In this document: in pieces, positions 27,199 through 57,533 of the stretch
Layout: each line of letters begins with the position of its first letter
Numbering within the stretch: position 1 is the stretch's first letter
NCBI GenBank assembly: GCA_015233115.1
Contig: JADFYJ010000001.1
Coordinates: 3,084 to 67,083, forward strand
From: Candidatus Omnitrophota bacterium
Lineage (GTDB): Bacteria; Omnitrophota; Gorgyraeia; Zapsychrales; Zapsychraceae
Length of the DNA: 64,000 nt
Reading direction: 5' to 3'
Notes under the pieces: model-generated
Databases searched by the model: none
What the model saw: the letters and a program-made list of their open reading frames with translations, nothing else
What the model was told of the DNA's origin: nothing
Position numbers and translations under genes: made by a program

Positions 27199-27199
27199 C

Positions 27200-27532
27200 G
27201 TGGACATTAAACTTGACAACATAAACGGTGTTGCGATTGTCACAGTAGGAGGCAACATCAATATGGATAATTGTAATGAACTCAGAGACGCTTTCAAAAA
27301 AGTGCTCAAAGACGGCAAGACTAAAGTTTTGATTGATTTGGCTAAAGTGGTATTTATTGATAGTTCCGGCATTGCTTCGTTAATTGAAATGTTTCAAAAT
27401 TTAGAAAAAGTTGGCGGTAAAATGCGTTTATGCCATGTGAATAAGAATATTATTGGATTATTTGAGATCACCAAAGTGCATAAGCTGTTCGGTATTTTTG
27501 AGAATCGTGAAGAAGCCCTTAAGGAGTTTTAA
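27200..27532 (+). CDS. anti-sigma factor antagonist (STAS domain)
   Basis: GTG start with AAGGAGG RBS; STAS fold with conserved phosphorylatable Ser in FIDSSG. Confidence 0.8.
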   Translation: MDIKLDNINGVAIVTVGGNINMDNCNELRDAFKKVLKDGKTKVLIDLAKVVFIDSSGIASLIEMFQNLEKVGGKMRLCHVNKNIIGLFEITKVHKLFGIFENREEALKEF

Positions 27533-27534
27533 TA

Positions 27535-28305
27535 ATGGCAGAAGATATTACCGCCATAGAGCAAAAAGCTCATATATTGATTGGTGAACATAAGTATCAA
27601 GAAGCGGGTGATCTGTATTATCAAGCCGCTAAAGTTCTTCAAAAAGAAGAAAAACACAGCCGGGCCGCGATTTGTTTAGCTGCTTCGGCCAGTAGTTTAG
27701 CGCTCATATTTGGAGAACGGACATTTCACCGGATTGCCTCACTTTATGAAGAAGCTGCGGAAGAAGCGGAAACTTCGCGCGATTTCGAATATTCATCTAT
27801 GTTGTATAAACATGCCGCTATTGCGTATGAACGGGATCATGATAATAATGCGTTTTCAGAATGTTTTTATAAATCCAAAGAAGCTTACCGGAAGTTCTTA
27901 GTGTTTGATCTTTTTCAGACTCAAAAAAAAGATGATAATGTGGAAATTAAATTTAATCTCAAAATTATTAAACGCCGGATTTTGCCTTTGTTTTCGGTGA
28001 CTTTTTCATCACTTTTGTGGGGTCATGGTGAACGACCGCATCGTACCGTAGCGTTTGGTTTCGTGTTGATTTTATTATGCGCGATTTTTTATACACATGG
28101 TCATTTTTATAAGATTGACGCGGTCATTCATCCTAATTTATTTCAGGCTACGTATTTTAGTTTTACGAATTTCACTAAAGTTGGCGCCGAGAGCGTAACT
28201 CCCATTGGGTTGAATAAAGTAGTGGCGGTTATTGAGGCTTTTAGCGGACTTTTCATCATCCCCTTATTTCTTACTGGTCTTTGCCGAAAGTATTTAAGGT
28301 TTTAA
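27535..28305 (+). CDS. soluble helical N-domain fused to a 2-TM pore-loop ion-channel-like domain
   Basis: C-terminal TM1, pore-helix-like YFSFTNFTKVGAESVTP, TM2; no K+ selectivity GYG. Confidence 0.45.
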   Translation: MAEDITAIEQKAHILIGEHKYQEAGDLYYQAAKVLQKEEKHSRAAICLAASASSLALIFGERTFHRIASLYEEAAEEAETSRDFEYSSMLYKHAAIAYERDHDNNAFSECFYKSKEAYRKFLVFDLFQTQKKDDNVEIKFNLKIIKRRILPLFSVTFSSLLWGHGERPHRTVAFGFVLILLCAIFYTHGHFYKIDAVIHPNLFQATYFSFTNFTKVGAESVTPIGLNKVVAVIEAFSGLFIIPLFLTGLCRKYLRF

Positions 28306-28315
28306 ATAATATATT

Positions 28316-28430
28316 ATGTGGTTTTTGGTTTTTGGATGTTGGTTTTTGGTTGTTGAGAAAAATCGCTTTTTCCTAAAACTAAAAACTCTCAACCATTAAC
28401 GGTGAAACCAACGATTTCAACAATTTCAAC
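28316..28430. repeat. GTTG/CAAC heptad element
   Basis: gtggtttttggtttttggatgttggtttttggttgttgagaaaaatcgctttttcctaaaactaaaaactctcaaccattaacggtgaaaccaacg. Confidence 0.65.
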
Positions 28431-28453
28431 ATTTATGAAAAACAGATTTAAAA

Positions 28454-28572
28454 CGCGCGCGGTAGGGCGGGTTGCATTTAAACCAAATCATTCGCTCAAA
28501 CAGCAGCTCCTAAGCGGAGCTGAACTCGCTCGGTGATTCGGTTTCAACGCTAACCTTGGAATTGGGCACGCG
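28454..28572 (+). repeat. R1 structured element, copy 2
   Basis: cgcgcggtagggcgggttgcatttaaaccaaatcattcgctcaaacagcagctcctaagcggagctgaactcgctcggtgattcggtttcaacgctaacc...gggcacgcgc. Confidence 0.8.
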
Positions 28573-28592
28573 CATATATGATTTAATCGCTT

Positions 28593-29603
28593 ATGAAAAA
28601 TTTATTTATAGTTTGTGGATTGTTGATTGCCATATTTTTATTGCCTTGCTGTGCTCACGCTAACGACCAGGTTTTCAAAGAATACTATGAAGTTCGCAAT
28701 TATTTTGGTACTGCTGTTTCTATTCATGCCTATTATGATCCCAAAATTGACATTGCCTCAGCGGTTCGGGAATGTTGGCAAAAGGCTGATCAAATTCAAT
28801 ATAATATGAATATTTATGATGAGAAAAATCAGGGGGACCTTAATCGGCTGAATAAATCAGGACTTAATGGCGTTCAAGTGAGTGATGATGTTTTTACCAT
28901 ATTTAAACATTCGCTTGAATTTTCACGACTGACTGGTGGAGCGTTTGATGTGACTGTATTACCTTTGATCAAATTGTGGAAAAAATGCGCAAAAGAAGGG
29001 CATCTTCCAGATCGAAAAATATTAGAACAGGCTAAAGCGAAAGTTGGCTGGCAGAATATTCGTCTTAAAGAACCGAATATGGTTTTTTTGATGAAACAAG
29101 GCATGATGGTGGATTTTGGTTCGCCTTCATCCGGATATTTTTGCGATGCTTTAGCCAAAATATTGGAACAACATAATATTCATGATTTTTTAGTTGATGG
29201 CGGAGGGGAATTGTATTACAAGGGGAAAGAAAAAGGAATCATTCCCTGGCGAGTAGGCATTGAAGATCCCTTTCAAAAAGATAAAATTTTGGCTGTTATA
29301 GAATTACGGGATAGGGGGGTATCAACTTCAGGAAATTACGAGAAATTCGTGACCATTGAGGGGCAAAAATATTCGCACATTATTGATCCGGTCAGCGGTT
29401 ATCCCCAAAAAGACACAGTCAGCGTAACCGTGATCGCGGATACTGCGGAAACCGCCAATGAATTGTCTACTGGTTTATGTGTGATGGGCGGACAAAAAGG
29501 CATTGCGCTCATCCGTTCATTGAAAAATATTGAAGCATTGATTATAGAAAACAAGAATGGCATTATAACGCGCTACCAAACTGATGGCTTTTTACCAAAT
29601 TAA
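28593..29603 (+). CDS. apbE: FAD:protein FMN transferase ApbE (lipoprotein)
   Basis: lipoprotein signal (LLPCCA), ApbE conserved blocks (GGAFDVTV, STSGNYE..., HIIDP). Confidence 0.85.
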   Translation: MKNLFIVCGLLIAIFLLPCCAHANDQVFKEYYEVRNYFGTAVSIHAYYDPKIDIASAVRECWQKADQIQYNMNIYDEKNQGDLNRLNKSGLNGVQVSDDVFTIFKHSLEFSRLTGGAFDVTVLPLIKLWKKCAKEGHLPDRKILEQAKAKVGWQNIRLKEPNMVFLMKQGMMVDFGSPSSGYFCDALAKILEQHNIHDFLVDGGGELYYKGKEKGIIPWRVGIEDPFQKDKILAVIELRDRGVSTSGNYEKFVTIEGQKYSHIIDPVSGYPQKDTVSVTVIADTAETANELSTGLCVMGGQKGIALIRSLKNIEALIIENKNGIITRYQTDGFLPN

Positions 29604-29707
29604 TTTCAACAATTTTAACAATTAGCCTCAAAAATACTCCTTGACATAGATAATCCGGTTGATATAATTTACGAACAATTTAAACTTGTTATTTTAGAAA
29701 GAGATAG

Positions 29708-30067
29708 ATGATATCTGAGTATTTAACAACTTCACAAACGGCCAGACTTTTTCATGTCACCCGATTTACTGTTCTTAACTGGATTAAACAGCAAAAATTA
29801 CAGGCTGTTTCAACTTTGGGCGGACACCAAAGAATACCTCAAAAAGCTATTGAAGACCTTCTCAAGCAAAAACAACAGGGATCCAAAATACCTGTTCAAG
29901 CACATATTTCCAAACAAATTCCTGAAGTAAAAAAAACAGTTAAACCTATCAGCACAGGCAGACCAGCACAAGCTAAAGCAGCTGAATTTGCTCGTGTTAT
30001 GAGAAAAGGGTCTTTTATATCCGGGAAATTTATCGCGTCTATAAAAAGCGGATTTTCACTTTTATGA
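29708..30067 (+). CDS. excisionase/MerR-type HTH DNA-binding protein (MamR-like candidate)
   Basis: TTSQTARLFHVTRFTVLNWIKQQKL...GGHQRIP = HTH_17-type helix; paralog of the 56528 ORF (SVTRFSVINWVKKGIL..PGGHRRI). Confidence 0.55.
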   Translation: MISEYLTTSQTARLFHVTRFTVLNWIKQQKLQAVSTLGGHQRIPQKAIEDLLKQKQQGSKIPVQAHISKQIPEVKKTVKPISTGRPAQAKAAEFARVMRKGSFISGKFIASIKSGFSLL

Positions 30068-30074
30068 AGTAAAA

Positions 30075-30150
30075 ATTTTATGGTTTTTAGTTGTTGGTTG
30101 TTGAATGTAATCGCTTTTTCCAAAAACCATGAACCATCAACGATTCAAAT
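30075..30150. repeat. GTTG/CAAC heptad element
   Basis: ggtttttagttgttggttgttgaatgtaatcgctttttccaaaaaccatgaaccatcaacg. Confidence 0.65.
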
Positions 30151-30156
30151 TTATTT

Positions 30157-31470
30157 ATGAAACAATCTGATAAAATTGAAGTTATCGTGGTAGGAGCAGG
30201 GCCATCAGGCTTGGCTTGTGCTTATACTTTAGCCAAAGCGGGTGTGGAGGTTCTTGTTTTAGAGCGAGGTGAATATCCGGGCGCCAAAAATATGTTTGGC
30301 GGGATATTTTTTTCTAGTATCATGGAAAAATTTTTTCCGAATTTTTTAGAAGATGCTCCTTGGGAACGTTTTGTGGGGAAAAGAAAATTTGCTCTTTTGA
30401 CAGGTGACAGTGAGATGACGTTTGAAATGAGCCCGAGTTCGTTTAACCGATCGCCGTTCAACCATTCATTCATTGCGCGCCGCGGGCAGATGGATCAGTG
30501 GTTTGCTAAGAAGGTTGAAGAAGCGGGCGGAAATATTATCCCAAATTATTGCGTGCGGGATTTTTTGTATGAAAAAGGTAAAGTCGTAGGTATTACCAGC
30601 GGCGGAGATGATGACAGTTTTTTGGCGGATTGCATTGTGTGTTCAGAAGGCGCGAATTCGCTTTTAACGGAACGGGCAGGATTACGTGAAAAGATCGGTC
30701 CTGAATATCGTTCGATCGCGGTGAAAGAAAATATCCGTTTCTCGCAGAGTGTTCTGGAAGACCGTTTTGGAGTGACCGGACAGCAAGGGGCGGCATATGA
30801 GTATTTTGGTTCATCAGTTAAAGGGCTTTTAGGCAATGGCTTTATTTACACAAATAAAGACAGTCTTTCAGTCGGCGTAGGATTTTCATTGAGTGATTTT
30901 ATTAAAAGCGGTAATAAAAAAACACCTCATGATATTTTAGAAGAATTCAAGTCTCACCCATCTATAGCGCCTTTAGTGCGCGGCGGTGAAACTGTTGAAT
31001 ACATGGCGCATATGATTCCGTCAGATGGATACAACCGGTTACCTAAATTTTACCGTGACGGATTGCTGATTACCGGTGATGCGGCAGGATTATTGAATAC
31101 TTCGTTTTTTCATGAAGGAGTGAATTTGGCCATGCAGTCGGGTATTTTGGCAGCGGAAACAATTATCGAGGCTCGGGCCAAAAAGAATTATTCGTCAGAA
31201 AATTTATCCAAGTACGAAGAGAAGTTGAATGCGAGTTTTATTTTACAGGATTTAAAAAATTGTAAAAATTTCTTAAGTTTCCTGACCACTCATAAAGCGA
31301 TTATTAATGAATATCCCGCTCTTATGAATGATATTTTGGTCGAATATTTTACTGTTTCTGAAAAGCCAAAGACGACGATCAAAAAAGAAATTTTTAACCG
31401 GATCCGGAAGAATGTGAATATACCCCGGATGGCGAGTGATATGTGGGGAGCATGGAGGAATTTAGTATGA
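30157..31470 (+). CDS. fixC: electron-transfer-flavoprotein:quinone oxidoreductase FixC family (FAD-dependent)
   Basis: VIVVGAGPSGLACAY dinucleotide fold, ERGEYPGAKN, conserved FixC blocks; followed by the ferredoxin-like FixX. Confidence 0.8.
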   Translation: MKQSDKIEVIVVGAGPSGLACAYTLAKAGVEVLVLERGEYPGAKNMFGGIFFSSIMEKFFPNFLEDAPWERFVGKRKFALLTGDSEMTFEMSPSSFNRSPFNHSFIARRGQMDQWFAKKVEEAGGNIIPNYCVRDFLYEKGKVVGITSGGDDDSFLADCIVCSEGANSLLTERAGLREKIGPEYRSIAVKENIRFSQSVLEDRFGVTGQQGAAYEYFGSSVKGLLGNGFIYTNKDSLSVGVGFSLSDFIKSGNKKTPHDILEEFKSHPSIAPLVRGGETVEYMAHMIPSDGYNRLPKFYRDGLLITGDAAGLLNTSFFHEGVNLAMQSGILAAETIIEARAKKNYSSENLSKYEEKLNASFILQDLKNCKNFLSFLTTHKAIINEYPALMNDILVEYFTVSEKPKTTIKKEIFNRIRKNVNIPRMASDMWGAWRNLV

Positions 31471-31784
31471 CACCGGAAACAATCATCCACGCTGCTCCTC
31501 ATGGAAAGAAAAAATTGACATTGGAAGATAAGCTTTATTTGGTTAAAACCAAAAAAGATAACATCAGCCATATTACGATTGAACATAAAAAGTGCACGCG
31601 GTGTCAGAATAAAGTTTGTTTGCGGGTGTGTCCGGCGAATACCTATGAAGAACGCGACGGAAAAATTGAAGCTGCTTATGAAAATTGTTTGGAATGCGGC
31701 AGTTGTAAAGTAGCATGTCCTGAAGGCGCAATTAAATGGGAAAATCCCCGCGGAGGTTTTGGGGTGACATTTTTGAATGGATGA
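31467..31784 (+). CDS. fixX: ferredoxin-like protein FixX
   Basis: CTRCQNKVCLRVCP ... CLECGSCKVACP ... WENPRGGFGV; start set to the ATG at 31467 behind a GGAGG RBS. Confidence 0.75.
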   Translation: MTPETIIHAAPHGKKKLTLEDKLYLVKTKKDNISHITIEHKKCTRCQNKVCLRVCPANTYEERDGKIEAAYENCLECGSCKVACPEGAIKWENPRGGFGVTFLNG

Positions 31785-31881: not shown

Positions 31882-32052
31882 ATGGCACATGTAATTGGCG
31901 GGGCTATCGCAGTGGTTTTAGGTGTGGCAGGAATTATCGGCTGGTGGGATAATTTTGGTGATTTTTTACGCGGTGGTATTCCTTTGGCTCTTTTCCTCGG
32001 TGGTTTAATTGCCGTGAATACGGGAATCAAATTTTTAAAGGAAAAGAAATAA
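31882..32052 (+). CDS. 56-aa two-TM membrane protein, MamI-like candidate (absent from the ORF track because <60 aa)
   Basis: AAGGAGAGG RBS 5 nt upstream; MAHVIGGAIAVVLGVAGIIGWWDNFGDFLRGGIPLALFLGGLIAVNTGIKFLKEKK. The G..GWW..FLRG..P.AL..LGL.A pattern matches my recollection of MamI. Confidence 0.5.
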   Translation: MAHVIGGAIAVVLGVAGIIGWWDNFGDFLRGGIPLALFLGGLIAVNTGIKFLKEKK

Positions 32053-32055
32053 TTT

Positions 32056-32301
32056 ATGCGTAATGCGTATAAAGTGAAGAAAGAAACCTGTTTTAGCCCT
32101 TGGCTAGGATTTATGGTTATTGTGGCGGTGTGTATTATTATTGCCGGCGGGATTTTTATTGAATCCAAAACGCATCCGCGTAAGCATCGAAGGACACATT
32201 TAAAACCAGTGCCGCAAGCAGCTCCAGCACAGCAGGTGGCTTTTCCTAATCCGGCCGACACGGGCGTCGTACCAGATAGGGATAGTAGGATTGTATTTTA
32301 A
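32056..32301 (+). CDS. small single-TM membrane protein with basic tail (81 aa)
   Basis: ATG 4 nt after the mamI-like stop; TM (FMVIVAVCIIIAGGIFI) then an R/K/H-rich segment. Confidence 0.4.
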   Translation: MRNAYKVKKETCFSPWLGFMVIVAVCIIIAGGIFIESKTHPRKHRRTHLKPVPQAAPAQQVAFPNPADTGVVPDRDSRIVF

Positions 32302-32478: not shown

Positions 32479-33870
32479 ATGTCAGAAGACAATAGAGAAG
32501 ATTTTTGTAATCAGCCGATCGGGCCCTGGATCGTTGGCGTAATCGTGATATCGATTATGCTGGTGATTTGGATCGTGATGAAACGGGAAGACATTATTCA
32601 TAGCGTTGAAATGGAACAACCTGTGCTTCCTAAAATCAAAATGTCCACAGCTGGAGAACCATCTTTTCCGACAGCAGTAACGCCAGCGGCCTTTAACAAA
32701 CAGACTCCGGTGGATACAAATTATCGGGTTGCGGCGATTACCAAGGCTACTCCTAATGGCGGTATGCAGTTGGTCGCGAATCAAACAAATGGCAATGGCG
32801 GCGGTTTTCAAAATTCTTTAAAAGACGCGGTGAATTCTATTATTCCTACGGTGTGTGATGTGCATGCCCGACGGGCAGCTACGGCTCCAAATGTCAAGAA
32901 AAATGTGGACGCTCAGAATTTAAAATTTGTTCCGCCTTTTAGCGGCGCTATTGATAAATTTGTTGAAAATAAAGGATTTGAAAATATCGGAGCGGGGATG
33001 TTGGTTGATCAGCGTGGTTATGTATTGACGAATTATCATGTAACGCAGGATGCGACGGATATCGTGGTAACAGTGTTTGGGCCGCCATCTCAGGATTATC
33101 ACGCGGATATTGTTGCCAGTGATCCGGCCAATGATTTGGCTCTCATTAAAATTAAAGCAGCCGGTACGTTTCCGGAAGCCAAGATAGGTGATTCCAGTTT
33201 TACTCAGATAGGCGATTATGTCATAGCTGTAGGCAGTCCTTTTGGCATTGAGCAGACAGTGACGAGCGGCATCATCAGCGGTATTCGTAAATCTATTGTG
33301 ATTGAAGGCGTCCGTTATCAAAATCTTTTTCAGACGGATACGCCAATCAACCGTGGTTCATCAGGCGGTCCATTGGTTAATTTAAGAGGAGAGGTGATTG
33401 GGATTAATTCGGCTATTTATGCCCCTACCGGCGTTTTTAGCGGGACTGGGTTTGCGATACCGATCAATGATTGTAAAGATTTTTTGGCCGTGAATTTGGG
33501 AAGAAATTATTCAATACCGGTTGATCAAAAAGGCATGTTAGCGCCGAACGTGGCGGATTTAAATAAAACCCAAAAAGGTCCTATTCCCATTCATTTTGGT
33601 ATCGAAGTAATGCCGGTCAATGATATCATTGCTAAACAGTTTGGGATTAGCGAGCATGGTGGAGTTTTGGTTAACCGCGTTTTGGATGTATCGCCAGCCA
33701 GTTTTGCGGGAATTCAACGCGGAGACATTGTGGTTTCTGTCGCGGGTGTTCCAGTTAAGGGGATGGATGATATTCCCAAAATTGTCGCGCATTTTAAAAC
33801 CGGTGATAACGTGAATGTCCGGATTCTTCGCAATGGAAAAATCGATGAGGTTCTGGTAAAGTTACAATGA
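32479..33870 (+). CDS. trypsin-like (HtrA/DegP family) serine protease with PDZ domain, MamE-Nter / MamO-like
   Basis: N-terminal TM; catalytic His (TNYHV), Asp (DLALIKI), Ser (GSSGGPLVN); C-terminal PDZ (GDIVVSVAGVPVKGMDD); no CxxCH, so the magnetochrome part would be a separate gene. Confidence 0.7.
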   Translation: MSEDNREDFCNQPIGPWIVGVIVISIMLVIWIVMKREDIIHSVEMEQPVLPKIKMSTAGEPSFPTAVTPAAFNKQTPVDTNYRVAAITKATPNGGMQLVANQTNGNGGGFQNSLKDAVNSIIPTVCDVHARRAATAPNVKKNVDAQNLKFVPPFSGAIDKFVENKGFENIGAGMLVDQRGYVLTNYHVTQDATDIVVTVFGPPSQDYHADIVASDPANDLALIKIKAAGTFPEAKIGDSSFTQIGDYVIAVGSPFGIEQTVTSGIISGIRKSIVIEGVRYQNLFQTDTPINRGSSGGPLVNLRGEVIGINSAIYAPTGVFSGTGFAIPINDCKDFLAVNLGRNYSIPVDQKGMLAPNVADLNKTQKGPIPIHFGIEVMPVNDIIAKQFGISEHGGVLVNRVLDVSPASFAGIQRGDIVVSVAGVPVKGMDDIPKIVAHFKTGDNVNVRILRNGKIDEVLVKLQ

Positions 33871-34472: not shown

Positions 34473-36164
34473 ATGGTAACACGTACTCATGTAAAAAAGC
34501 ACAACCCCTCATTAGAAGAAATTTCCGCAAAGATTAAAAATGCGGATTTGAACACCTATTTTATTTTTGGCGCTATCCTCATCGTTTTGATTGCGGGTGT
34601 TTATGCTTTGTTCGCTCCTGAAACGACCAATGAGCCGGTCGGAAATCCTGCCTGCGGAAAAATTGTGGTTGCAACGGATGGGTCAACGCTAGCGTCGAAA
34701 GTTTCGTCCACTTTACCGGAAGCGCGGTATTTTCTGGTTGTCAATCCTTTGACTAAGAGATTGGTTGAATCAATCAAAAATCCTTATCAGGGTAAAGTGC
34801 CGAATCCTCAGATTGCTTATTTAATCGCCGGTAAGGGTGAAGAAGCAGTTATTGTCGGAAGCATTGATCAAGAGAGTTATAATATTTTTAATCAATTTAG
34901 CATTCGGGTGTTTGGCGGGTATCGAGGCCAGGCTAAACAAGTTATTAGTTTGTACCGCAAAGCGAGAATAGGACAGATGGCGCGTCCGACCATGAGCGCT
35001 CCTCAAAATGTTAAGGGACATGCGCAAGTAGCTTTTCAAGGTTTGACAAATTTTGTTTGTCCGCGATGCGGTCAGACGGCTAATGGACAAAATTATAGAG
35101 GCGCAGGTTGTCCGATTTGTCCTAATTGCGCGATCCAGATGATGCAGCAAAATACTTTGCCGCAAAGACCCATGTTGGGACGACAGAATGCCCTGGGTAT
35201 GCGTATTAATCAGCCGTATTGTCCTATTCCCAATGCGCAAAATTCTCAGAATGTTCCTATGCAGAATCAAGTGGGTACTCAGAGTGGAGTACAGGCTGGC
35301 GCAGTTATTCAGGATATATACAGCAAAGGTGTTATGGATGGCTTAAGCATGAAAAATAATTTTGCCGGCGGATTACAGGCCGCGTTTGGTTTTGGCCAGC
35401 AAGCTTTTGTATGTCCGGTTTGTAATTGGCGGATGAAAGCTTCTAAACAAGGGAATAATTTTCCGGCTTGCCCGAATTGCGGTTCGCCTATGGCTTTGGA
35501 TATGTCGAAACAAAATCAAGAACCACAAGGGCCGTTTGCGGAAGGGGTATTTGCCGCTAACACTGTTCCTGCGGTTCAACCCGCTTATCCGATGAATAAT
35601 CAGGCGAATAATCAAATGAATATAAATCAAGGTAATGAATTAACCCAAGCTTTTCAATGTCCGAATTGTAATTGGCGGATGTATGCGAAGCAAGGTGCTA
35701 ATGAATTTCCACAATGTCCCAATTGCGGTCAGATTATGGCACGGGCAGGCAATGCATTCCAAAAACAAAATACTCAAAACGGTGCTTTTGCCAATAACGG
35801 AAATTTTGCGGCACAAATCGCGCTTCCACAAAATAATCAAGCTGCGGCAGGAACGACCACTGTGGCTCCACCGATTTTTCGTAACGCGGTTATGCCTCAT
35901 GAATATCGGGGAGTTTGCGAGAATTGTCATATTATTCGGGCTGATATCGCGATACCGGCGAATGCGCAAATGCCGCATCCATACCGCGGGATTTGTTCCA
36001 ATTGCCATCAGATTTTAGGAACTGGGGCTGGAGTACAAAATAACAATCAAATCGCGGTTCAGCCAAATGATCCGGCTATGATGCAGAATGATCCAACAAC
36101 GCAAAATCAATTTCAAAATAATACGGCCCCGGATCAGGGTGTCGCGCATGTGGGAATAAAATAG
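34473..36164 (+). CDS. NifX/NifB-like domain + repeated zinc ribbons + tandem magnetochrome protein
   Basis: TM; residues ~60-160 resemble the dinitrogenase FeMo-cofactor-binding fold (KIVVATDGSTLASKVS...ARYFLVVNP...IAGKGEEAVIVGSID); three CPxC-x12-16-CPNC ribbons in Q/N-rich linkers; C-terminal MPHEYRGVCENCH and MPHPYRGICSNCH. Confidence 0.7.
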   Translation: MVTRTHVKKHNPSLEEISAKIKNADLNTYFIFGAILIVLIAGVYALFAPETTNEPVGNPACGKIVVATDGSTLASKVSSTLPEARYFLVVNPLTKRLVESIKNPYQGKVPNPQIAYLIAGKGEEAVIVGSIDQESYNIFNQFSIRVFGGYRGQAKQVISLYRKARIGQMARPTMSAPQNVKGHAQVAFQGLTNFVCPRCGQTANGQNYRGAGCPICPNCAIQMMQQNTLPQRPMLGRQNALGMRINQPYCPIPNAQNSQNVPMQNQVGTQSGVQAGAVIQDIYSKGVMDGLSMKNNFAGGLQAAFGFGQQAFVCPVCNWRMKASKQGNNFPACPNCGSPMALDMSKQNQEPQGPFAEGVFAANTVPAVQPAYPMNNQANNQMNINQGNELTQAFQCPNCNWRMYAKQGANEFPQCPNCGQIMARAGNAFQKQNTQNGAFANNGNFAAQIALPQNNQAAAGTTTVAPPIFRNAVMPHEYRGVCENCHIIRADIAIPANAQMPHPYRGICSNCHQILGTGAGVQNNNQIAVQPNDPAMMQNDPTTQNQFQNNTAPDQGVAHVGIK

Positions 36165-36854: not shown

Positions 36855-38063
36855 ATGCCCAATCAAATTAAAGAATATCATCGTAAGCGAATGCAGAGAT
36901 TTTGGCTTGTGGTAATGATTGTTATCATTGGCATTTTCCTTCTGGCCGCGCTTATGCATATCGGCGCGGGCGACGCGGAGTGGGGCGGGATGTCTGTTTC
37001 TAACGCGACGCCTATGATGATGATGGAACATAATATTCCGAAAGATGAACAAGGGGTCGTCGTTGATTGGTGCGAAGATCCAGCCTATGCGGCAGGGGTG
37101 CGGGCTGGAGATCTACTCAAAGCCATTAACAATCAAAGGATCAAAAATTTATCGGATTTTTTGAAAGTGACAAAGAAGACCAGTTTGGCTCCGGGCGCTT
37201 TATTAGACATTTTACGTAATGGCCAACCGCTTTATATTACGATGGAAAATAAGATTGGCATTCACGATCAGCTTAAAAAATCGCTTAACATTGATCCGGG
37301 CACTACTGGAACAACGGCAGGAAATACTAGTACGACTGATGTTCCGTTATCCGCAGGTGTAGGCAAATCAGTACATATTCCGGTTGCGGTTAATAATACT
37401 CAGGCGATTATTCCGGCAGCTTTTGCCAATCGTTCTCCGGCGGAAACAGCGGAGGCAGGGGTTAATGTTGCCCCAAAGGGTATTCCTAATATGAGTTTAC
37501 CTACGCCTAAAGAACAAGGCGCGGCTCATAAAGAATTAGTGGAAGGACATTGGCTGGGCTTAGAACTTATTCCTTTGACTGTCGAGTTAGCCACGGAATA
37601 CCGTGTTCCTCCGGATATTAAAGGGGTTCTGGTTGATGAAATATGTCTTGAGGCTGCTGAATCCGGAATTCTCGCCGGTGATATGGTGGTGGCGATTGAG
37701 GATGAATCAACGCCCGATTTAACCGCTTTTTCAGAAGCAACCAGAAATGTTAAAAATAGGTCTAAAGCGAAAGTACTTGTTTCACGCCGTGGAAAATTAA
37801 TGACCTTTATTATTACCTCTGATAGAACTTTAGGCTTTTCACAGAATGAGGCAGCTCAACCTATCACGCCAGGTGCGCTCAGTCCTCACCGCAGCAGGAA
37901 TAAACCATGTACAACTTGTCATATTATCATGCTGACCGGCGGTCAGCTTCCAACAGACGCGGGTGATATATTACCTAATCCGCCGCCGATCGCCAAAGGC
38001 GCGGTTGCGCCCCATGAATACCGGGGTAAATGCAAAACGTGTCATATTATTTTGAAAAAGTAG
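36855..38063 (+). CDS. PDZ-PDZ-magnetochrome protein (MamP / MamE-Cter-like)
   Basis: N-terminal TM; two PDZ-like regions (GVRAGDLLKAINNQRI; ILAGDMVVAIEDE); C-terminal CTTCHII and APHEYRGKCKTCHII c-heme sites. Confidence 0.7.
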   Translation: MPNQIKEYHRKRMQRFWLVVMIVIIGIFLLAALMHIGAGDAEWGGMSVSNATPMMMMEHNIPKDEQGVVVDWCEDPAYAAGVRAGDLLKAINNQRIKNLSDFLKVTKKTSLAPGALLDILRNGQPLYITMENKIGIHDQLKKSLNIDPGTTGTTAGNTSTTDVPLSAGVGKSVHIPVAVNNTQAIIPAAFANRSPAETAEAGVNVAPKGIPNMSLPTPKEQGAAHKELVEGHWLGLELIPLTVELATEYRVPPDIKGVLVDEICLEAAESGILAGDMVVAIEDESTPDLTAFSEATRNVKNRSKAKVLVSRRGKLMTFIITSDRTLGFSQNEAAQPITPGALSPHRSRNKPCTTCHIIMLTGGQLPTDAGDILPNPPPIAKGAVAPHEYRGKCKTCHIILKK

Positions 38064-38065
38064 TC

Positions 38066-38542
38066 ATGGCTTCAAAAATAAATATGAATGATAATGCCGG
38101 ATATTTGCCGATTTGTTTTTATATTGAAAGAAAAGCGTGCTTAGTTGTCGGCGGCGGCAAAGTGGCATTTCGCAAAATTACCATACTCAAAAAATTTGGG
38201 GCTGTCATAACTTGCTTGAGCCCGATTTTTGTTAAACCGCTGGAACGACTTCACGCAACGGCAAAAATTAAATGCGTCAAACGCGGTTATCCGCAGACTT
38301 TGTCTTTAAAAAAATATGCTTTGGTCATTGCCGCGACGAATGATCCGGTTGTTAATAAACGCGTGGCTTCCGACGCTAAACGAGATAATGTTTTGTTTAA
38401 TGTGGTTGATAAAAGTGCAGCTGGTTCGGTAATAATGCCGGCTATTTTGAAACATAAAGGGATGCTTATTAGTGTATCTACCGGCGGCCGCAGTCCAAGC
38501 CAAGCAAAGAAAACACGAGATATTTTAAAAGGTGTGATATGA
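38066..38542 (+). CDS. sirC: precorrin-2 dehydrogenase / sirohydrochlorin ferrochelatase (SirC/Met8/CysG-N type)
   Basis: Rossmann CLVVGGGKVAFRKI..., 159 aa; start set to the ATG at 38066 just after the upstream stop. Confidence 0.75.
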   Translation: MASKINMNDNAGYLPICFYIERKACLVVGGGKVAFRKITILKKFGAVITCLSPIFVKPLERLHATAKIKCVKRGYPQTLSLKKYALVIAATNDPVVNKRVASDAKRDNVLFNVVDKSAAGSVIMPAILKHKGMLISVSTGGRSPSQAKKTRDILKGVI

Positions 38543-39531
38543 AATTAGTGCTGATTGGAACAAGTCATAAAAGAGCGCCTTTGGCGATGCGGGAAAAATT
38601 TAGTTTTTCGGGCGAGAAGTTGGGGCAGTATTATGCTCGTCTTAAGAGCTATCCTGACGTGCGTGAGGCGTTTATTTTGTCGACTTGCAATCGGGTTGAA
38701 ATATATGGAGTTGGGCAGGATGCTGTTGTTGTCGCTGATCAGTTAAAGAAATTTTTGCGTGAAGTGCATGGGATGAATTCGGCTTCATGGGAAGAACATT
38801 TTTATAATAAGACAAATAAAGATGCGCTCGAACATCTTTTACGAGTAGCTAGCGGCCTTGATTCTATGGTAATCGGTGAGCCGGAGATTATTGGACAAAT
38901 TAGAAAAGCCTATGATCAAGCTTGTATGGCCGGCGTGATTGGCTCGTATCTTCATAAAGCTTTGCAAGATTGCCTACAAGTCGGGAAAAAAGTGCGCAGT
39001 TCTACCGGCATATCTCGCGGAGTAACGTCAGTTTCAGGTGTAGTTGTTGAATTATTGAAAAAACAATCTAATCTTAAAGATAAAAAAGTTTTGGTCATCG
39101 GCGCGGGTAAAATCGGCGCTATGACTGTGGTGAAATTAGCAGATCTTCTTATTGGTGAAATTATAGTGATGAACCGTGACATGACTAGGATGGCAGATTT
39201 CGAGCATATTACGAATATGCGGCCGGCAGAATTTTGCGCGCTTAAAGATGAAATTTTAATCGCGGATATTGTCATTGCCGCGACAGCTTCAATGAAATAT
39301 CTTTTGGATCGCGACTTAATTAAAGAGGCGTTTTTGACCCGGAAAAATGATTTGCTTTTGGTTGATTTAGGCGTGCCCCGCAATATTGATGAAACCACCC
39401 GGCAAATCACTGGCGTGACGCTTTATAACATTGATGATTTAGCCCCGATTGTGGATGAGACCATGCGGTACCGGACTCAAGAAGCCGAAAAAGCCGAAGA
39501 AATTATTCAAGGTAAATTGGCATTTATGTAG
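38539..39531 (+). CDS. hemA: glutamyl-tRNA reductase
   Basis: LIGTSHK.APLA.RE, active-site STCNRVEIY, NADPH fold VLVIGAGKIG. Confidence 0.9.
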   Translation: MKLVLIGTSHKRAPLAMREKFSFSGEKLGQYYARLKSYPDVREAFILSTCNRVEIYGVGQDAVVVADQLKKFLREVHGMNSASWEEHFYNKTNKDALEHLLRVASGLDSMVIGEPEIIGQIRKAYDQACMAGVIGSYLHKALQDCLQVGKKVRSSTGISRGVTSVSGVVVELLKKQSNLKDKKVLVIGAGKIGAMTVVKLADLLIGEIIVMNRDMTRMADFEHITNMRPAEFCALKDEILIADIVIAATASMKYLLDRDLIKEAFLTRKNDLLLVDLGVPRNIDETTRQITGVTLYNIDDLAPIVDETMRYRTQEAEKAEEIIQGKLAFM

Positions 39532-39539
39532 AACATAAA

Positions 39540-39660
39540 GCGCGCGGTTGGGCGGTTTGCATTTAAACCGAATCCTTCGCTCAAACAGCAGCTCCTAAGC
39601 GGAGCTGAACTCGCTCGGTGATTCGGTTTCAACGCCAACCTTGTATTTTGGCACGCGGTT
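39540..39660 (+). repeat. R1 structured element, copy 3
   Basis: gcgcgcggttgggcggtttgcatttaaaccgaatccttcgctcaaacagcagctcctaagcggagctgaactcgctcggtgattcggtttcaacgccaacc...ggcacgcggtt. Confidence 0.85.
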
Positions 39661-39667
39661 AGAAATT

Positions 39668-40558
39668 ATGAGATCAATTACTTTTGGAATACGAAAAAGT
39701 GTTTTAGCTCGCCGGCAAATGGACGAGTTTATCGCGTATTTGGGAAAGAATAATATTACGTTTGATTATTCGGTCAAAATTATTCAGACGGCAGGTGATC
39801 AGGATCAGAAGTCGCCGGTTTCGCAAATGGGGCAGGGAATTTTTACGAAAGAAATTGAGCGCGCGATTCTGAACAAGGAAATTGATTGCGCGGTACATAG
39901 CCTTAAAGATATGCCGGTTAAAACGGAAAAAGGGACTTTGCTGACTTTTTGTGGTGGTCGAGAAGATGTTCGTGATTGTCTGGTAGTTCGAGCAGGTATA
40001 TCGGCTGATCATTTAAATAATTTGCGTATAGGAACAGGCAGTCCGCGGCGGATCGCTTTTTTAAAAGAGTTAGATCCATCCGTTAATATATTGCCCATTC
40101 GAGGGAATGTTGACACTCGTTTACGGAAATTGGATTTAGGCGAATACGACGCCATTGTTTTGGCTGCGTGCGGTTTGAAACGTTTAGGATATGGAAACCG
40201 GATCAATCGCTATTTTGACCCGGACACTTTTGTTCCTGCTGCTGGTCAGGGTGTTGTTTGCGGTCAGACGCGGGAAGATGATGTAGAATTAATCAAGGTA
40301 TTGAAAAAATGTGTTTCGCCTGTAACGGAACAAATAGTCAAAGCGGAACGAAAAGTATTGGAAGCTTTAGGCGTCGGATGTCAAACTCCGTTCGGCGTCT
40401 ATGCTCGTTTTGAAGGTGAGACATTTATTATATCTGCCAAGTTGTATGCAGAACATAACCAAACTTTTATGACAGAACGTAAAACGGGAAATAAAGATGA
40501 TTTTGAAAAAGCTACGGATGAATTGATTGAAAATCTTAAACGAAAAATAAAGGATTAA
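39668..40558 (+). CDS. hemC: porphobilinogen deaminase (hydroxymethylbilane synthase)
   Basis: start moved to ATG 39668 (MRSITFGIRKSVLA) because the ORF-track start lies inside the R1 repeat; cofactor-binding Cys in GVGCQTP. Confidence 0.9.
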   Translation: MRSITFGIRKSVLARRQMDEFIAYLGKNNITFDYSVKIIQTAGDQDQKSPVSQMGQGIFTKEIERAILNKEIDCAVHSLKDMPVKTEKGTLLTFCGGREDVRDCLVVRAGISADHLNNLRIGTGSPRRIAFLKELDPSVNILPIRGNVDTRLRKLDLGEYDAIVLAACGLKRLGYGNRINRYFDPDTFVPAAGQGVVCGQTREDDVELIKVLKKCVSPVTEQIVKAERKVLEALGVGCQTPFGVYARFEGETFIISAKLYAEHNQTFMTERKTGNKDDFEKATDELIENLKRKIKD

Positions 40559-40560
40559 AA

Positions 40561-40697
40561 GGTAGGGATGTGTGCAATGGGCGTCGTTTCAACCAAGTCC
40601 TTCGCTCAAACAGCAGCTCCTAAGCGGAGCTGAACTCGCTCGGGGACTTGGTTTTCACTCTGCCTGAGCAAGCGCAAGGTTTGTGGCATGCAAACTA
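40561..40697 (+). repeat. R1 structured element, copy 4 (divergent flanks, conserved central hairpin)
   Basis: ...tttcaaccaagtccttcgctcaaacagcagctcctaagcggagctgaactcgctcggggacttggttttcac... Confidence 0.7.
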
Positions 40698-40716
40698 AAA
40701 TTTAGAAAATAAAGCT

Positions 40717-42222
40717 ATGAATAAAGTAATTAAATTAGGAAAGGTTTATCTCGTCGGTGCTGGTCCTGGTGACCCTGGTCTTATCACTGTTAAGGCACTC
40801 GCCTGCGTTCAGACTGCTGACGTGATTTTGTATGATAAATTGATTGACACCAGCATATTAAAATATTGTAAAACTGGCGCGGTCATCAAATATGTCGGTA
40901 AAGAAAAAGGGAAGATCTTACAGCAAGAAGCGATCAATGAGTTGTTGCTAGGGTATGCTCGTGAAGGTAAAACTGTAGCGCGGCTTAAAGGCGGAGACCC
41001 GTTTATTTTTGGCCGCGGGCAGGAAGAAATGATTTTTCTGAAAAGTTATGGTATTGACTGTGAAGTGATACCGGGTGTGAGTTCATTTTATGCTGTTCCT
41101 GAAGTGTGTGGCATCCCGCTCACCCATCGGGACATTTCCAGCGGATTTATGGTATTAACCGGGCATGAAAAGCCGGGTAAAAATGTTGAAAATGTTGAAT
41201 GGAAGCATGCGGCTAAATTTCAAGGCACGATTGTAATAATGATGGGATTGTCAAATCTGGCTGAGCTTACGGCTAAATTGCTTAAATATGGGAAAGACGG
41301 TAGAACTTTGGCAGCGGTTATTGCGCATGGATCCACCCCCCAACAGGAAGTTGTAGTTGGGACGCTGGCAGATATTGCGTATAAATCCCGGAATTTCAGT
41401 TCTCCGGCTATTTGTGTCATTGGCTCTGTGGTGAAAGTTGGTTTCGCCTTAAATCCGGATTTAAAACCGCTTTTGAATAAACGCTATTTATCTACGGCGA
41501 GTGAAGATCTTAACCGGGATTTGTCAGCTATTTTAGAACGATGGGGCGCTAAAGTGGAATGTTTGCCTATGATTCGAATTGAAGAAAATTCTGATACTGT
41601 TTTGATGGATCAAATTATTGCGGATCCTAAAAAGTTTGACTGGCTGGTTTTTACATCGCGACATGGCGTTCAGTATTTTTTTAAAAGATTTTATGTGTTA
41701 AAAGGGAAAATAGGAAGTTTGAAGGGACGAGTGGCATGCGTCGGGACAGGTACAGCCAAAGAATTCTCTAAATGTGGAATACAACCGGATTTGATGCCTG
41801 CCATATTTACAACCAAAGACTTGGGTTTGGCTTTATTGGAAAAAGGCGTTAAAGGGAAAAAATTAGCTTTAATCCGCACGCAGATGGACAAGGATCCTTT
41901 AAAGAAAATGTTGAAGAAAGCCGGTGCTGATATCACAGATTGTTTTGCTTACAACGTCGCGGATACCAATGATAAAACAGCATTAAAAAACGCGGTTATG
42001 CAAAAACCCGACGGTATTTTCTTTTTAAGCCCTAGATCTGTGCGGGTATTTTTTGAACTGCTGTCAACTAAAGATCTTGAACCAGTTAAAAAATCGAGTT
42101 TATTTTTTTCAATCGGTACAGTCACAACTCAGGCATTAAAAAAACAGGGTGTTAAAAATGTTATACCTGCTAAAGAACATACAGTACAGGGGTTGGTAGA
42201 ACTCTGTTTAGGAGGAAACTAA
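40717..42222 (+). CDS. cobA/hemD: bifunctional uroporphyrinogen-III C-methyltransferase / uroporphyrinogen-III synthase
   Basis: N-terminal SUMT (VYLVGAGPGDPGLITVKA, RLKGGDPFIFGRG), C-terminal HemD fold. Confidence 0.9.
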   Translation: MNKVIKLGKVYLVGAGPGDPGLITVKALACVQTADVILYDKLIDTSILKYCKTGAVIKYVGKEKGKILQQEAINELLLGYAREGKTVARLKGGDPFIFGRGQEEMIFLKSYGIDCEVIPGVSSFYAVPEVCGIPLTHRDISSGFMVLTGHEKPGKNVENVEWKHAAKFQGTIVIMMGLSNLAELTAKLLKYGKDGRTLAAVIAHGSTPQQEVVVGTLADIAYKSRNFSSPAICVIGSVVKVGFALNPDLKPLLNKRYLSTASEDLNRDLSAILERWGAKVECLPMIRIEENSDTVLMDQIIADPKKFDWLVFTSRHGVQYFFKRFYVLKGKIGSLKGRVACVGTGTAKEFSKCGIQPDLMPAIFTTKDLGLALLEKGVKGKKLALIRTQMDKDPLKKMLKKAGADITDCFAYNVADTNDKTALKNAVMQKPDGIFFLSPRSVRVFFELLSTKDLEPVKKSSLFFSIGTVTTQALKKQGVKNVIPAKEHTVQGLVELCLGGN

Positions 42223-43328
42223 TGATTCCATGTAGTAAAATCATGCGCGGTGAGCGTAGTGTTCATAATGAACGGAAAACCGGGCCGCTTTTTGTTTGGA
42301 ACGTGATTAGCCGATGTAACCTTTTGTGCAGTCATTGTTATCGTGATTCACAGGCCGGTATGGAAGCGCCTGATCTGTCTGATGAAAAATGTTTAGAATT
42401 AGTCAGCCAGATTAAAGCTGTCAATCCGCCGATCGTGCTTTTGACCGGAGGGGAACCGCTTTTAAGAAAAAATATTTTTGATTTGATCAAAGAATGCAAG
42501 AATCAAGGTTTACGGGTCGGGCTTTCCACCAATGGCACCTTAATAGACAAAAGTATGGCACAAAAAATCAGCCAAGCCGGAGTTGATTATGTAGGGATCA
42601 GTATTGACGGGAAAAAAGAACATCATGATGTGTTCCGCGGATCAAAAGGTGCGTATGATGCCAGCTGGGCAGGGCTCAAGATATTAAATGAGTTAGGCGT
42701 TAAAACCGGTGTGCGTTTTACTTTGACTGCTGCTAACAGTGGCGATCTTATGGACATTCTGGAAAAAACCGTAGCTAGCGGATGTAAACGTTTTTGCCTG
42801 TATCATTTGGTCTATGCCGGCCGCGCGTCTAAAGATTTGGATATGACTGTCAAAGCGAAGCGGGACATTTTAAAAATATTTTTTACAAAAGTAAAAGAGT
42901 TATCCGCGAAAGATCCGAGTTTTGATGTGTTGACCACAGATAATCCGGCAGATGGAATTTTTATGTCAAAGATTATTGATGATGGCGAAGCGGCCATGTC
43001 CTGCATAATGGCGCACGGTGGCTGTTCAGCCGGTGACCGGGTGGTATATCTGGATTCAACCGGTGATGTTTATCCTTGCCAGTTTTTGCGCGATCATTCG
43101 TTGGGTAATGTGAAAGATCAGACATTTTTAGAAATATGGGAAAATCATAGCAATGAATTTTTACAGCAGTTAAGGAATAAAAAAGGATTGTTGCAAGGTG
43201 TTTGCGGTGAATGTGCGCACAAAGGCATTTGCGGCGGATGCCGCGCCCGTGCCAAAGCTTTTCACGGTTCCCTATGGGCAGAAGATCCGGCATGCTATTT
43301 GAATGAAAATGAAAAAAATGGTGTCTGA
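42222..43328 (+). CDS. radical SAM / SPASM protein of the alternative heme pathway (AhbC/AhbD/NirJ family)
   Basis: CNLLCSHCY radical SAM cluster motif; C-terminal CGEC..C..GC SPASM cysteines; position inside the heme operon. Confidence 0.75.
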   Translation: MIPCSKIMRGERSVHNERKTGPLFVWNVISRCNLLCSHCYRDSQAGMEAPDLSDEKCLELVSQIKAVNPPIVLLTGGEPLLRKNIFDLIKECKNQGLRVGLSTNGTLIDKSMAQKISQAGVDYVGISIDGKKEHHDVFRGSKGAYDASWAGLKILNELGVKTGVRFTLTAANSGDLMDILEKTVASGCKRFCLYHLVYAGRASKDLDMTVKAKRDILKIFFTKVKELSAKDPSFDVLTTDNPADGIFMSKIIDDGEAAMSCIMAHGGCSAGDRVVYLDSTGDVYPCQFLRDHSLGNVKDQTFLEIWENHSNEFLQQLRNKKGLLQGVCGECAHKGICGGCRARAKAFHGSLWAEDPACYLNENEKNGV

Positions 43329-43421
43329 TCTCGATTGGAAATTGACGCCAAGCATTTAACCGGCGATAATTTTTTCTTTCGAGCAATTTGTTTCAAGTCG
43401 AGATCTGACACCATTTTTTAT
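43313..43421 (+). terminator. large hairpin element (arms ~22 nt) followed by a T-run, terminator-like, copy 1
   Basis: aaaaaatggtgtctgatctcga ... tcgagatctgacaccatttttta; the first arm overlaps the last codons of the radical SAM gene. Confidence 0.5.
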
Positions 43422-43424
43422 AAA

Positions 43425-43545
43425 GCGCGCGGTAGGGCGGTTTGCATTTAAACCAAATCATTCGCTCAAACAGCAGCTCCGAAGCGGAGCTGAACTCGCT
43501 CGGTGATTTGGTTTCAACGCTAACCTTGGATTTGGGCACGCGGTT
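43425..43545 (+). repeat. R1 structured element, copy 5
   Basis: gcgcgcggtagggcggtttgcatttaaaccaaatcattcgctcaaacagcagctccgaagcggagctgaactcgctcggtgatttggtttcaacgctaacc...ggcacgcggtt. Confidence 0.85.
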
Positions 43546-56966: not shown

Positions 56967-57533
56967 ATGAAAAACGAATCAAAAAAAGTGTCTTGTAAAT
57001 CGGGGTCTTGTTCAGATTCAATTGCTAAAAAAGTATGGCTTGTCGTAGGCGCAGTTGTTGTGTTGGCGGTTTTGTTTTGCGCTGCCATGTTTAAAACAAA
57101 AAACTTTTTGCCTCCTGGTGCCGTAGCATCAACGCGCAGTGCGCAGCAGGCAGCATATGTACCATTTTGCGGGGTACGCGGCGGTCAGCAAGCTGCTTTT
57201 CAACAAAATAACGGGATAATTCATTGCCCTCGATGCAATTTTGATTATAACGATTCAACTGCGGTTAACCGTGGTTTTTCGCGTTGTCCGCGTTGTCAGG
57301 GATATATTTCATGTAGGAATCAGAATGGCGGGGGATTTAGAAATGTTGCCTTAACGCAGCCGGTATCCGCGCCGCCAATTTTTAGGGATGCTCTCATGCC
57401 GCATGAATTTCGCGGAGTTTGTGAAAATTGCCATGTGGTTAATCCGGATATTACGATACCCATTTCATCAACACAAATGCCGCATGAATATCGTGGTGTT
57501 TGTTCTAATTGCCATACCATATTGGGCGGGTAA
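56967..57533 (+). CDS. double-magnetochrome protein with zinc ribbon (MamT/MamX-like)
   Basis: TM; CPRCNFDYND...CPRCQGY ribbon; MPHEFRGVCENCH and MPHEYRGVCSNCH. Confidence 0.65.
   Translation: MKNESKKVSCKSGSCSDSIAKKVWLVVGAVVVLAVLFCAAMFKTKNFLPPGAVASTRSAQQAAYVPFCGVRGGQQAAFQQNNGIIHCPRCNFDYNDSTAVNRGFSRCPRCQGYISCRNQNGGGFRNVALTQPVSAPPIFRDALMPHEFRGVCENCHVVNPDITIPISSTQMPHEYRGVCSNCHTILGG

Follow-up and report, generated by a model that had tools for sequence, protein, structure and literature searches.

The window analyzed here (64,000 nucleotides from a Candidatus Omnitrophota bacterium, contig JADFYJ010000001.1) contains, inside a magnetosome gene cluster recognized by Pfam, NCBIfam and synteny, an open reading frame (ORF) at 34473-36164 whose product joins a single transmembrane (TM) helix, a NifX-like (Nitro_FeMo-Co) domain, three Cys4 ribbon modules and two magnetochrome (MCR) heme-c units. 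Taken as a whole, these features are best explained by an Omnitrophota-specific, TM-anchored protein of the magnetosome lumen with a role in iron redox and iron handling, a counterpart of FmpB that would have been assembled independently of it; we assign to this reading a probability of about 0.6. A preliminary description, made from the sequence alone, had placed the ORF at exactly this position and had not recognized its combination of domains from any characterized Mam protein. This last point was mistaken, as FmpB unites a magnetochrome, a PDZ domain and a NifX/NifB domain (PMC4287615), and FmpA also carries a NifX-like domain (PMC12748827). The protein is a rearranged relative in kind of FmpB and not a wholly new invention: the pairing of magnetochrome and NifX-like domain is known, and the novelty lies in the arrangement, the ribbons and the domain subfamily.

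The start codon of the ORF follows a Shine-Dalgarno-like AAGGGA site by a few bases, and a gap of 9 nt separates the ORF from the preceding gene. The gene is already deposited under a generic annotation, its product being 100% identical to NCBI MBF0477888.1 (P0001), a 'magnetochrome domain-containing protein' of a Candidatus Omnitrophica metagenome-assembled genome (MAG); no prior description of this architecture in Omnitrophica was found in the accessible literature. A scan against Pfam returned Nitro_FeMo-Co, magnetochrome and sub-threshold zinc-ribbon matches, and the N-terminal TM segment initially proposed was recovered as the sole hydrophobic stretch of the protein, coinciding with an AlphaFold2 (AF2) helix (residues 26-47). 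One hydrophobic segment was likewise found in all 45 family members examined. A lipoprotein, or a signal cleaved between the Cys and Gly of the NPACG motif, was considered and rejected on reading the sequence, the Cys lying 13 residues past the hydrophobic segment and positions -3/-2 not resembling a lipobox. Residues 171-470 form a linker with Q, N and A at 13% each and G and P at 9% each, in agreement with the Q/N/P-rich region of ~300 aa noted previously, with A and G also abundant. This linker carries 14 of the 19 cysteines of the protein, and a Q/N-rich tail of 43 aa follows the magnetochromes. Cys-Pro motifs of the type CP[LI]P occur in 0-3 copies per ortholog, with C250 in the present protein.

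Firstly, we analyzed the NifX-like domain. Pfam PF02579 matched residues 75-162 over profile positions 3-93 of 94 (E=2.4e-5), with a score of 25.0 bits that is slightly below the gathering score of 26.3; on the orthologs P0061 (39.4 bits) and P0078 (65.1 bits) the model passed. An alignment of 41 orthologous NifX-like domains (A1) was employed both as family profile and as input for AF2. Compared with the PDB, the profile matched MTH1175 (2.4e-10), TM1290 (1.7e-9), TM1816 (1.4e-6), PH0822 and ORP, the last at only 0.033. The AF2 model (pLDDT 85, pTM 0.80) displayed the expected order of strands and helices, and in a Foldseek search of the PDB its best 14 matches all belonged to the Nitro_FeMo-Co fold; values were 2.5e-8 for TM1290, TM-scores of 0.79/0.82 for ORP, 1.3e-4 for NifX in the NifEN complex (9ian_F) and 1.3e-3 for the NafY core (1p90). 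The three-layer alpha/beta fold shared by NifX, the NafY core, ORP and MTH1175 is present in the modeled domain. A genuine Nitro_FeMo-Co fold, which had been proposed for residues ~60-160, is thus confirmed at the level of profiles and structure prediction.

The further proposal that this domain resembles NifX, NafY and the C-terminal domain of NifB held with regard to the fold, but among solved structures the nearest are MTH1175, TM1290 and proteins of the ORP type, all stand-alone and of unassigned or non-nitrogenase function, and not bona fide NifX, NafY or NifB, which are more distant. MTH1175, TM1290, TM1816, PH0822 and ORP share the alpha/beta fold of the domain with TM-scores of 0.7-0.8; they are cytoplasmic single-domain proteins, whereas the domain studied here is membrane-tethered, predicted to be extracytoplasmic, and has an altered set of motifs. 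NifX and NafY serve to assemble the nitrogenase cofactor, in contrast to a domain encoded in a magnetosome cluster: no nif genes were present among the window genes scanned, the neighbors being mam genes, and instead of being cytoplasmic and nif-encoded the domain lies on the same side of the single TM segment as the c-type heme units.

In order to define what distinguishes this subfamily, a column census of 239 NifX-like domains, grouped by architecture, was performed. Cys61, within an NPACG motif just before the first strand, was found in 58 of 65 domains of the present type and was essentially missing from generic, FmpA-like and FmpB-like domains; together with Y105, Y116 and K121-G-E123-E124 it makes up a set of invariants private to these domains. 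Where the nearest generic relatives have RFGR(C/A)P, the present domains have TLPEAR. At the Y116 and E123/E124 columns both FmpA-like and FmpB-like domains resemble generic ones, and for FmpA-like domains this likeness largely extends to the RFGR(C/A)P motif. With its private invariant Tyr, Glu and Cys residues, the present domain may contain a remodeled ligand site. A more specific version of this idea is that the domain has been retooled with the hard ligands Tyr105, Tyr116, Glu123, Glu124 and Lys121, together with Cys61, as an extracytoplasmic carrier of an iron cluster or mineral precursor, the redox state of the load being tuned by the tethered hemes before it is handed to the crystal, and that it was recruited independently of FmpA and FmpB. 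Such a domain would amount to a biomineralization chaperone for clusters, derived from the fold of nitrogenase cofactor carriers. We put this forward tentatively and consider it rather unlikely; the load could be of the Fe-O type, or of the Fe-S type should Omnitrophota produce greigite.

The closest functional precedent is provided by Desulfovibrio magneticus RS-1, in which fmpA, fmpB and mamB are adjacent and FmpB (DMR_41100, formerly MamT, MamP-like or MamP*) begins with a magnetochrome, continues with a PDZ domain and has its NifX/NifB domain at the C-terminus; particles are fewer in fmpB mutants (PMC4287615). A 2025 study described dinitrogenase Fe-Mo domains in both FmpA, which has a TM segment, and FmpB, which has a signal peptide, found both proteins enriched on early-stage magnetosomes, and reported fewer, smaller and misshapen crystals for alleles predicted to remove the Fe-Mo domains (PMC12748827). 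For sequence comparisons we used the FmpB-like proteins P0070 and P0076, RS-1 FmpB being considered by its published description. P0070 lies within a magnetosome cluster, and its NifX-like domain (33% identity, E=2e-15) and magnetochromes (E=7e-6) matched those of the Omnitrophota protein in reversed order. Like FmpB, the latter holds magnetochrome hemes and a NifX-like domain in one protein of a magnetosome cluster, predicted to be extracytoplasmic, its gene adjoins that of a PDZ protein, and a role in iron redox and early biomineralization would be expected. Unlike FmpB, it has the NifX-like domain first and the magnetochromes last, a TM anchor in place of the signal peptide, no PDZ match, three added Cys4 ribbons and long Q/N-rich linkers. 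It also has one NifX-like domain, against two in P0070 and P0076, and its private C61, Y105, Y116 and KGEE are missing from FmpB-like domains.

An exhaustive profile search returned 954 representatives at E<1e-3. Among the best 150 of these, about 16 were FmpB-like (2-4 CXXCH, PDZ, 1-2 NifX-like domains) and about 15 were FmpA-like, several of them from Desulfamplus MAGs. These FmpA or MamE-Cter-type proteins of Desulfobacterota (e.g., P0063, P0065 and P0066 from Desulfamplus MAGs) resemble the Omnitrophota protein in belonging to magnetosome clusters and in combining a TM anchor, NifX-like domains and interspersed Cys ribbons. They differ from it in their length of ~730-1500 aa, in their 2-4 NifX-like domains, in two PDZ domains (confirmed in those scanned against Pfam), in being without magnetochrome, and in a ribbon subtype of the form CPxCG...HxxG(V/I)PC...CPxCG. 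A clean magnetosome-specific clade of NifX-like domains was considered and not retained, as the ranking of whole proteins was inflated by the summed scores of several domains and the preference was only marginal when domains were compared one by one.

With regard to function, an iron-handling or Fe-S-handling redox role, as first surmised, is plausible by analogy because it fits the phenotypes of the RS-1 fmpA and fmpB mutants (PMC4287615, PMC12748827). MamP-type magnetochromes have been assigned a role in iron redox (Siponen 2013, as reported in a paper citing it). In the reading that we prefer, the N-terminal helix would anchor the protein in the magnetosome membrane or inner membrane, leaving the rest in the lumen or periplasm as beads on a flexible Q/N-rich string, with the NifX-like domain close to the membrane, a variable number of Cys4 ribbons, and one or two magnetochromes at the end. 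The magnetochrome hemes would exchange electrons with iron (Fe(II) oxidation or Fe(III) reduction, as in MamP) and so set the Fe(II)/Fe(III) balance for nucleation and growth of the crystal. The NifX-like domain may bind, and keep near the hemes, either a partner protein or iron in inorganic form (as an Fe-S cluster, an Fe-O cluster or a precursor of the mineral), and the ribbons may act as additive, metal-stabilized beads for interaction or metal capture. Attachment of heme to magnetochromes is extracytoplasmic; from this requirement and the single TM segment in 45 of 45 members, we infer that the NifX-like domain and the ribbons face the lumen or periplasm, in keeping with the placement reported for FmpB on the basis of its signal peptide.

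Several observations weigh against this interpretation. Besides C61, no conserved Cys or His was found in the domains of this type in the census, which, together with the loss of RFGR(C/A)P, makes canonical cluster ligation doubtful. In domain-wise BLAST the best matches outside the family were Fmp-like (64.7, 62.0, 61.6, down to 58.5 bits), but their closeness is marginal when the best score of 64.7 bits is set against the ~56 bits of generic cytoplasmic NifX-DUF5320 proteins, whose gene neighborhoods are Fe-S-related and not of the magnetosome kind. The positive-inside bias around the TM helix is modest, and AF2 confidence was low in the magnetochrome region, although this is expected for a model without heme. 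In addition, the ribbons, whose number varies and which a few members do not have, are not essential to the core function.

The alternative that best withstands these data is that the NifX-like domain has lost cofactor binding and serves, in the position that PDZ occupies in FmpB, MamP and MamE, as a structural, oligomerization or protein-docking module, making the protein a MamT-like electron-transfer protein with an unusual scaffold. The absence of conserved His and Cys inside the fold and the lost motif are compatible with it, as are the PDZ domain that is missing here and present in FmpB-like proteins, the closest solved relatives of the domain, to which no function is assigned, and the best NCBIfam matches, MamT and MamP, which are due to the magnetochromes only. 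We nonetheless regard it as unlikely, since no other part of the protein is as conserved as this domain and its private polar invariants (C61, N103, Y105, Y116, K121, E123 and E124) are typical of a ligand site, and since in RS-1 the predicted loss of the Fe-Mo domains renders the alleles defective (PMC12748827).

We next consider the three ribbon modules, which were present, with CPxC...CPxC spans at residues 196-217, 314-336 and 396-418, as previously described, though their likeness had been overstated: identity is 53% between modules 2 and 3 and only 31-38% between module 1 and either of these. In the 58 family modules that make up profile A3, C5, P6, C8, C24 and C27 were invariant, and W10, P22, P25 and N26 were at least 90% conserved. 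In an AF2 model of the full-length protein each ribbon formed an independently folded beta-hairpin unit (pLDDT 65-91), with disordered linkers of 40-80 residues between them. With folded hairpins and with knuckle cysteines that orthologs keep either without exception or to at least 90%, the CxxC pairs are not the low-complexity artefacts that had been feared at the outset. Sub-threshold Pfam zinc-ribbon models fell on residues 310-346 and 389-425, and searches with Pfam, NCBIfam and PDB profiles gave several weak zinc-ribbon matches, all under their cutoffs. Profile A3 retrieved from the PDB weak relatives of the Zn-ribbon or knuckle type only (HVO_2753-like, DUF1610, S27ae, L32, TiaS, HypA). 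The modules are thus confirmed as of a predicted Cys4 zinc-ribbon type, with two CxxC knuckles on beta-hairpins, conserved in orthologs.

Zinc and iron are not separable from sequence in Cys4 knuckles, and CPxC...CPxCG knuckles are common to rubredoxins and zinc ribbons. The modules might be rubredoxin-like Fe(Cys)4 centers that, with the hemes, form a multi-center wire carrying electrons between NifX-like domain and mineral, as would suit an iron-rich compartment in which the other modules are redox units; a weak NCBIfam match to the rubredoxin-like end of nigerythrin (E=8.6e-4) points in the same direction. This proposal is, however, very unlikely. No rubredoxin in the PDB matched profile A3, and both the long disordered linkers and a ribbon number that ranges from 0 to 6 among orthologs argue against a fixed wire.

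The two C-terminal magnetochrome units were borne out in full. PF18509 scored 59.7 bits against a cutoff of 30.4, the heme-c signature PHxxxGxCxxCH was present with CENCH at 482-486 and CSNCH at 508-512, and H476, C508, C511 and H512 were invariant in orthologs. MamP, MamT, MamX and MamE similarly carry paired PHxxxGxCxxCH heme-c units facing the magnetosome lumen, but they are without a NifX-like domain or Cys4 ribbons, and the canonical MamP is encoded separately (Table 1). An identity of the whole protein with MamP or MamT was rejected, as scores for the NCBIfam models of MamP (NF040965; 36.6 vs 300) and MamT (NF040992; 45.7 vs 200) stemmed from the magnetochromes only.

A 188-aa paralog encoded further downstream in the window is collinear with residues 395-516, i.e., ribbon 3 and both magnetochromes, with 46% identity (E=2e-29). 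This paralog bears QQAA(Y/F) motifs and resembles P0050. A motif QQ(V/A)AF(G) recurs just before the ribbons in the ORFs at 34473-36164, 32056-32301 and 56967-57533 and in P0048 and P0050, several of which are small magnetosome-cluster proteins.

These comparisons bear on a further possibility, that the protein is the magnetochrome part of a MamE split over three adjacent genes (MamE-Nter, PDZ protein and the present gene). The three genes do jointly hold trypsin, PDZ, PDZ and two MCR units, and MamE-Nter is here without magnetochromes. The magnetochromes at issue, however, match best the MamT and MamP models, MamE not being among the NCBIfam matches, and they share 46% identity with the units of the separate 188-aa paralog; moreover, a split MamE leaves the NifX-like domain and the ribbons unexplained, which renders it quite improbable.

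The ortholog search recovered about 50 members, nearly all from Candidatus Omnitrophota MAGs, with a conserved magnetosome-cluster order. Twenty species-representative genomes carry the gene, 18 labeled Omnitrophota and 2 Planctomycetota. All 20 are MAGs, at least 15 of them with bin names in a style that we take to be that of the magnetotactic surveys of Lin et al. When the domain alignment was run in a word-indexed search, only a few close fragments were gained, and distant relatives did not turn up. Four features are constant in the family: the single TM segment, an NPxCG motif that contains Cys61, a NifX-like core bearing KGEE, and one or more CXXCH at the C-terminal end. A single magnetochrome is commoner among members than two, and a few, possibly truncated, were without a magnetochrome match. 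Ribbons number 0 to 4 per member, rising to 6 in NifX-plus-ribbon proteins in which no CXXCH was found. As judged from these alignments, the core unit is TM, NifX-like domain, linker and magnetochrome, to which the ribbons appear to be accessory in a dosage-like manner.

Proteins of the NifX-plus-ribbon type in which no CXXCH motif was found (P0058, P0061 and P0071), together with the match to the 188-aa paralog, indicate that the architecture probably arose by fusion of a NifX-plus-ribbon protein with a ribbon-plus-magnetochrome protein, independently of FmpB. On the sequences compared, this is the most economical history.

The gene is a real and conserved member of the Omnitrophota magnetosome cluster, in line with the first assignment to a biomineralization system: it is flanked by genes for MamI, MamE-Nter, a PDZ protein and MamP. 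The order MamI, MamE-Nter, PDZ protein, the present gene, two small ORFs, MamP, MamM, MamB, MamA and MamQ is kept in the contigs L001 and L002, and as far as MamM/MamB it is also kept around the divergent ortholog P0078 in L025. Omnitrophota magnetosome clusters have been described as conserved and distinctive (PMC5955933). The PDZ domain of the protein encoded directly upstream has weak similarity to the FmpA-like P0063. Counterparts of the two small downstream ORFs, of 77 aa and 87-88 aa, occupy the same position in L001 and L002, and L025 has just one small ORF there (63 aa); the two may encode partners of the protein. It is most improbable that the gene encodes a periplasmic protein of general electron transfer or metal homeostasis that happens to adjoin magnetosome genes and has no part in biomineralization, for although housekeeping heme-biosynthesis genes interrupt the cluster here and FixC/FixX, ApbE and transport genes lie in the flanks, the gene was located between MamE-Nter/PDZ and MamP in every contig examined, divergent lineages included, and the magnetochrome (PF18509) is restricted to magnetotactic bacteria according to Siponen 2012, as reported in a paper citing it.

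Table 1. Features of the NifX-like magnetochrome protein and of neighboring genes, in window coordinates.
Feature	Position	Strand	Description
MamI	31882-32052		magnetosome gene upstream of MamE-Nter-like protease gene
81-aa ORF	32056-32301		between MamI and MamE-Nter-like protease genes
MamE-Nter-like serine protease (trypsin + PDZ)	32479..33870	+	NF040960 MamE 257.6 bits; Pfam Trypsin_2, PDZ; conserved neighbor
TM + PDZ protein, 198 aa	33867..34463	+	MamE-Cter/FmpA-like without NifX domain; directly upstream; synteny in L001, L002
ORF under study	34473..36164	+	563 aa, ATG start; TM, NifX-like domain, 3 Cys4 ribbons, 2 magnetochromes (ORF list)
N-terminal TM helix / signal anchor	34548..34616	+	residues ~26-48, sole hydrophobic segment; AF2 helix 26-47
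N-P-A-C-G motif, N58-G62 with Cys61	34644..34661	+	just before beta-1; invariant in alignments A1 and A2
NifX-like domain (predicted Nitro_FeMo-Co fold)	34650..34976	+	residues ~60-168; Y105, Y116, K121-G-E123-E124 family-specific; Pfam, profile vs PDB, AF2, Foldseek, column census
Ribbon module 1	35043..35156	+	residues ~191-228, CPRC...CPICPNC; divergent type, in a subset of orthologs only
Ribbon module 2	35394..35516	+	residues ~308-348, FVCPVCNWRM...FPACPNCGSPMA; C314, C317, C333, C336 at least 90% conserved; pLDDT 85-91
Ribbon module 3	35640..35750	+	residues ~390-426, FQCPNCNWRM...FPQCPNCGQIMA; collinear, with magnetochromes, with 188-aa paralog
Two magnetochrome (MCR) heme-c units	35865..36020	+	residues ~465-516; MPHEYRGVCENCH and MPHPYRGICSNCH; PF18509 59.7 bits, 2 stretches
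Small ORF, TM protein, 79 aa	36173-36412	+	directly downstream of ORF under study
Small ORF, 85 aa	36415-36672	+	CxxC, hydrophobic hairpin, CxxC; LITAF-like, weak Pfam hint E=0.06
MamP (2 PDZ + 2 magnetochromes)	36855..38063	+	NF040965 223 bits; Pfam MCR, PDZ; conserved downstream neighbor
188-aa paralog	56967..57533	+	TM, one CPRC...CPRC ribbon, two magnetochromes, without NifX domain; Pfam MCR 2e-13

Between mamP and mamM, the window holds at 38030-47911 a complete siroheme-dependent (Ahb) heme-biosynthesis cluster comprising genes for a precorrin-2 dehydrogenase-like protein, HemA, HemC, a CobA/HemD fusion, AhbC- and AhbD-like radical SAM proteins, HemB, AhbA, AhbB and HemL. L001 has this insertion as well, there with a CcsA-like gene for cytochrome c assembly, and the mam genes are contiguous in L002. 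Its position among the mam genes in the window and in L001 suggests that heme supply is co-located with the magnetochrome genes. Following the heme block, the magnetosome genes continue with MamM, MamB, MamA, MamQ, PDZ-CitMHS, TauE, a PDZ protein and the 188-aa protein with one ribbon and two MCR units. The PDZ-CitMHS gene (52424-54238, +) encodes a 604-aa fusion of PDZ with a CitMHS/ArsB-type transporter, found as the same fusion in L002, and a CitMHS gene also occurs in the Desulfobacterota-type cluster L004; the fusion may be a magnetosome ion transporter.

Other observations concern the surroundings. The first 23 kb of the window consist of housekeeping genes. An upstream block (24856-31784, +) encoding a CHASE2-SpoIIE phosphatase, an RsbW-like kinase, a STAS antagonist, Ion_trans_2, ApbE and an HTH_17 regulator is common to the window, L001 and L002, and FixC/FixX-like ETF-QO genes stand directly before mamI in the window and L001 only. 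Just past the magnetosome genes, a fusion of C_GCAxxG_C_C, TusA and DsrE-like domains (58529-59650, +) is of the sulfur-relay type and of possible interest, as the mineral made by Omnitrophota is reported as unresolved (PMC7449369). An additional small stand-alone Nitro_FeMo-Co protein is encoded in L002 (21393-21614, 235 aa) and in L025 (4676-5239, 187 aa), and no second NifX-like domain was found in the present window.

Genetic evidence implicates NifX-like domains in the way deep-branching magnetotactic bacteria form magnetosomes. The three types of module described here (NifX-like domain, Cys4 ribbon and magnetochrome) recur across phyla in rearranged form, and this recurrence favors the view that in the lumen a cluster-carrier fold works in partnership with iron redox by hemes. 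The Omnitrophota protein offers a compact version with a single NifX-like domain and the sharply defined invariants C61, Y105, Y116 and KGEE, which makes it suited to expression, metal analysis and mutagenesis. If its domain does bind an iron cluster or mineral precursor, it would be the first case known in which the fold of nitrogenase cofactor carriers is used outside the cytoplasm, and would provide a handle on the delivery of iron to the magnetosome crystal.

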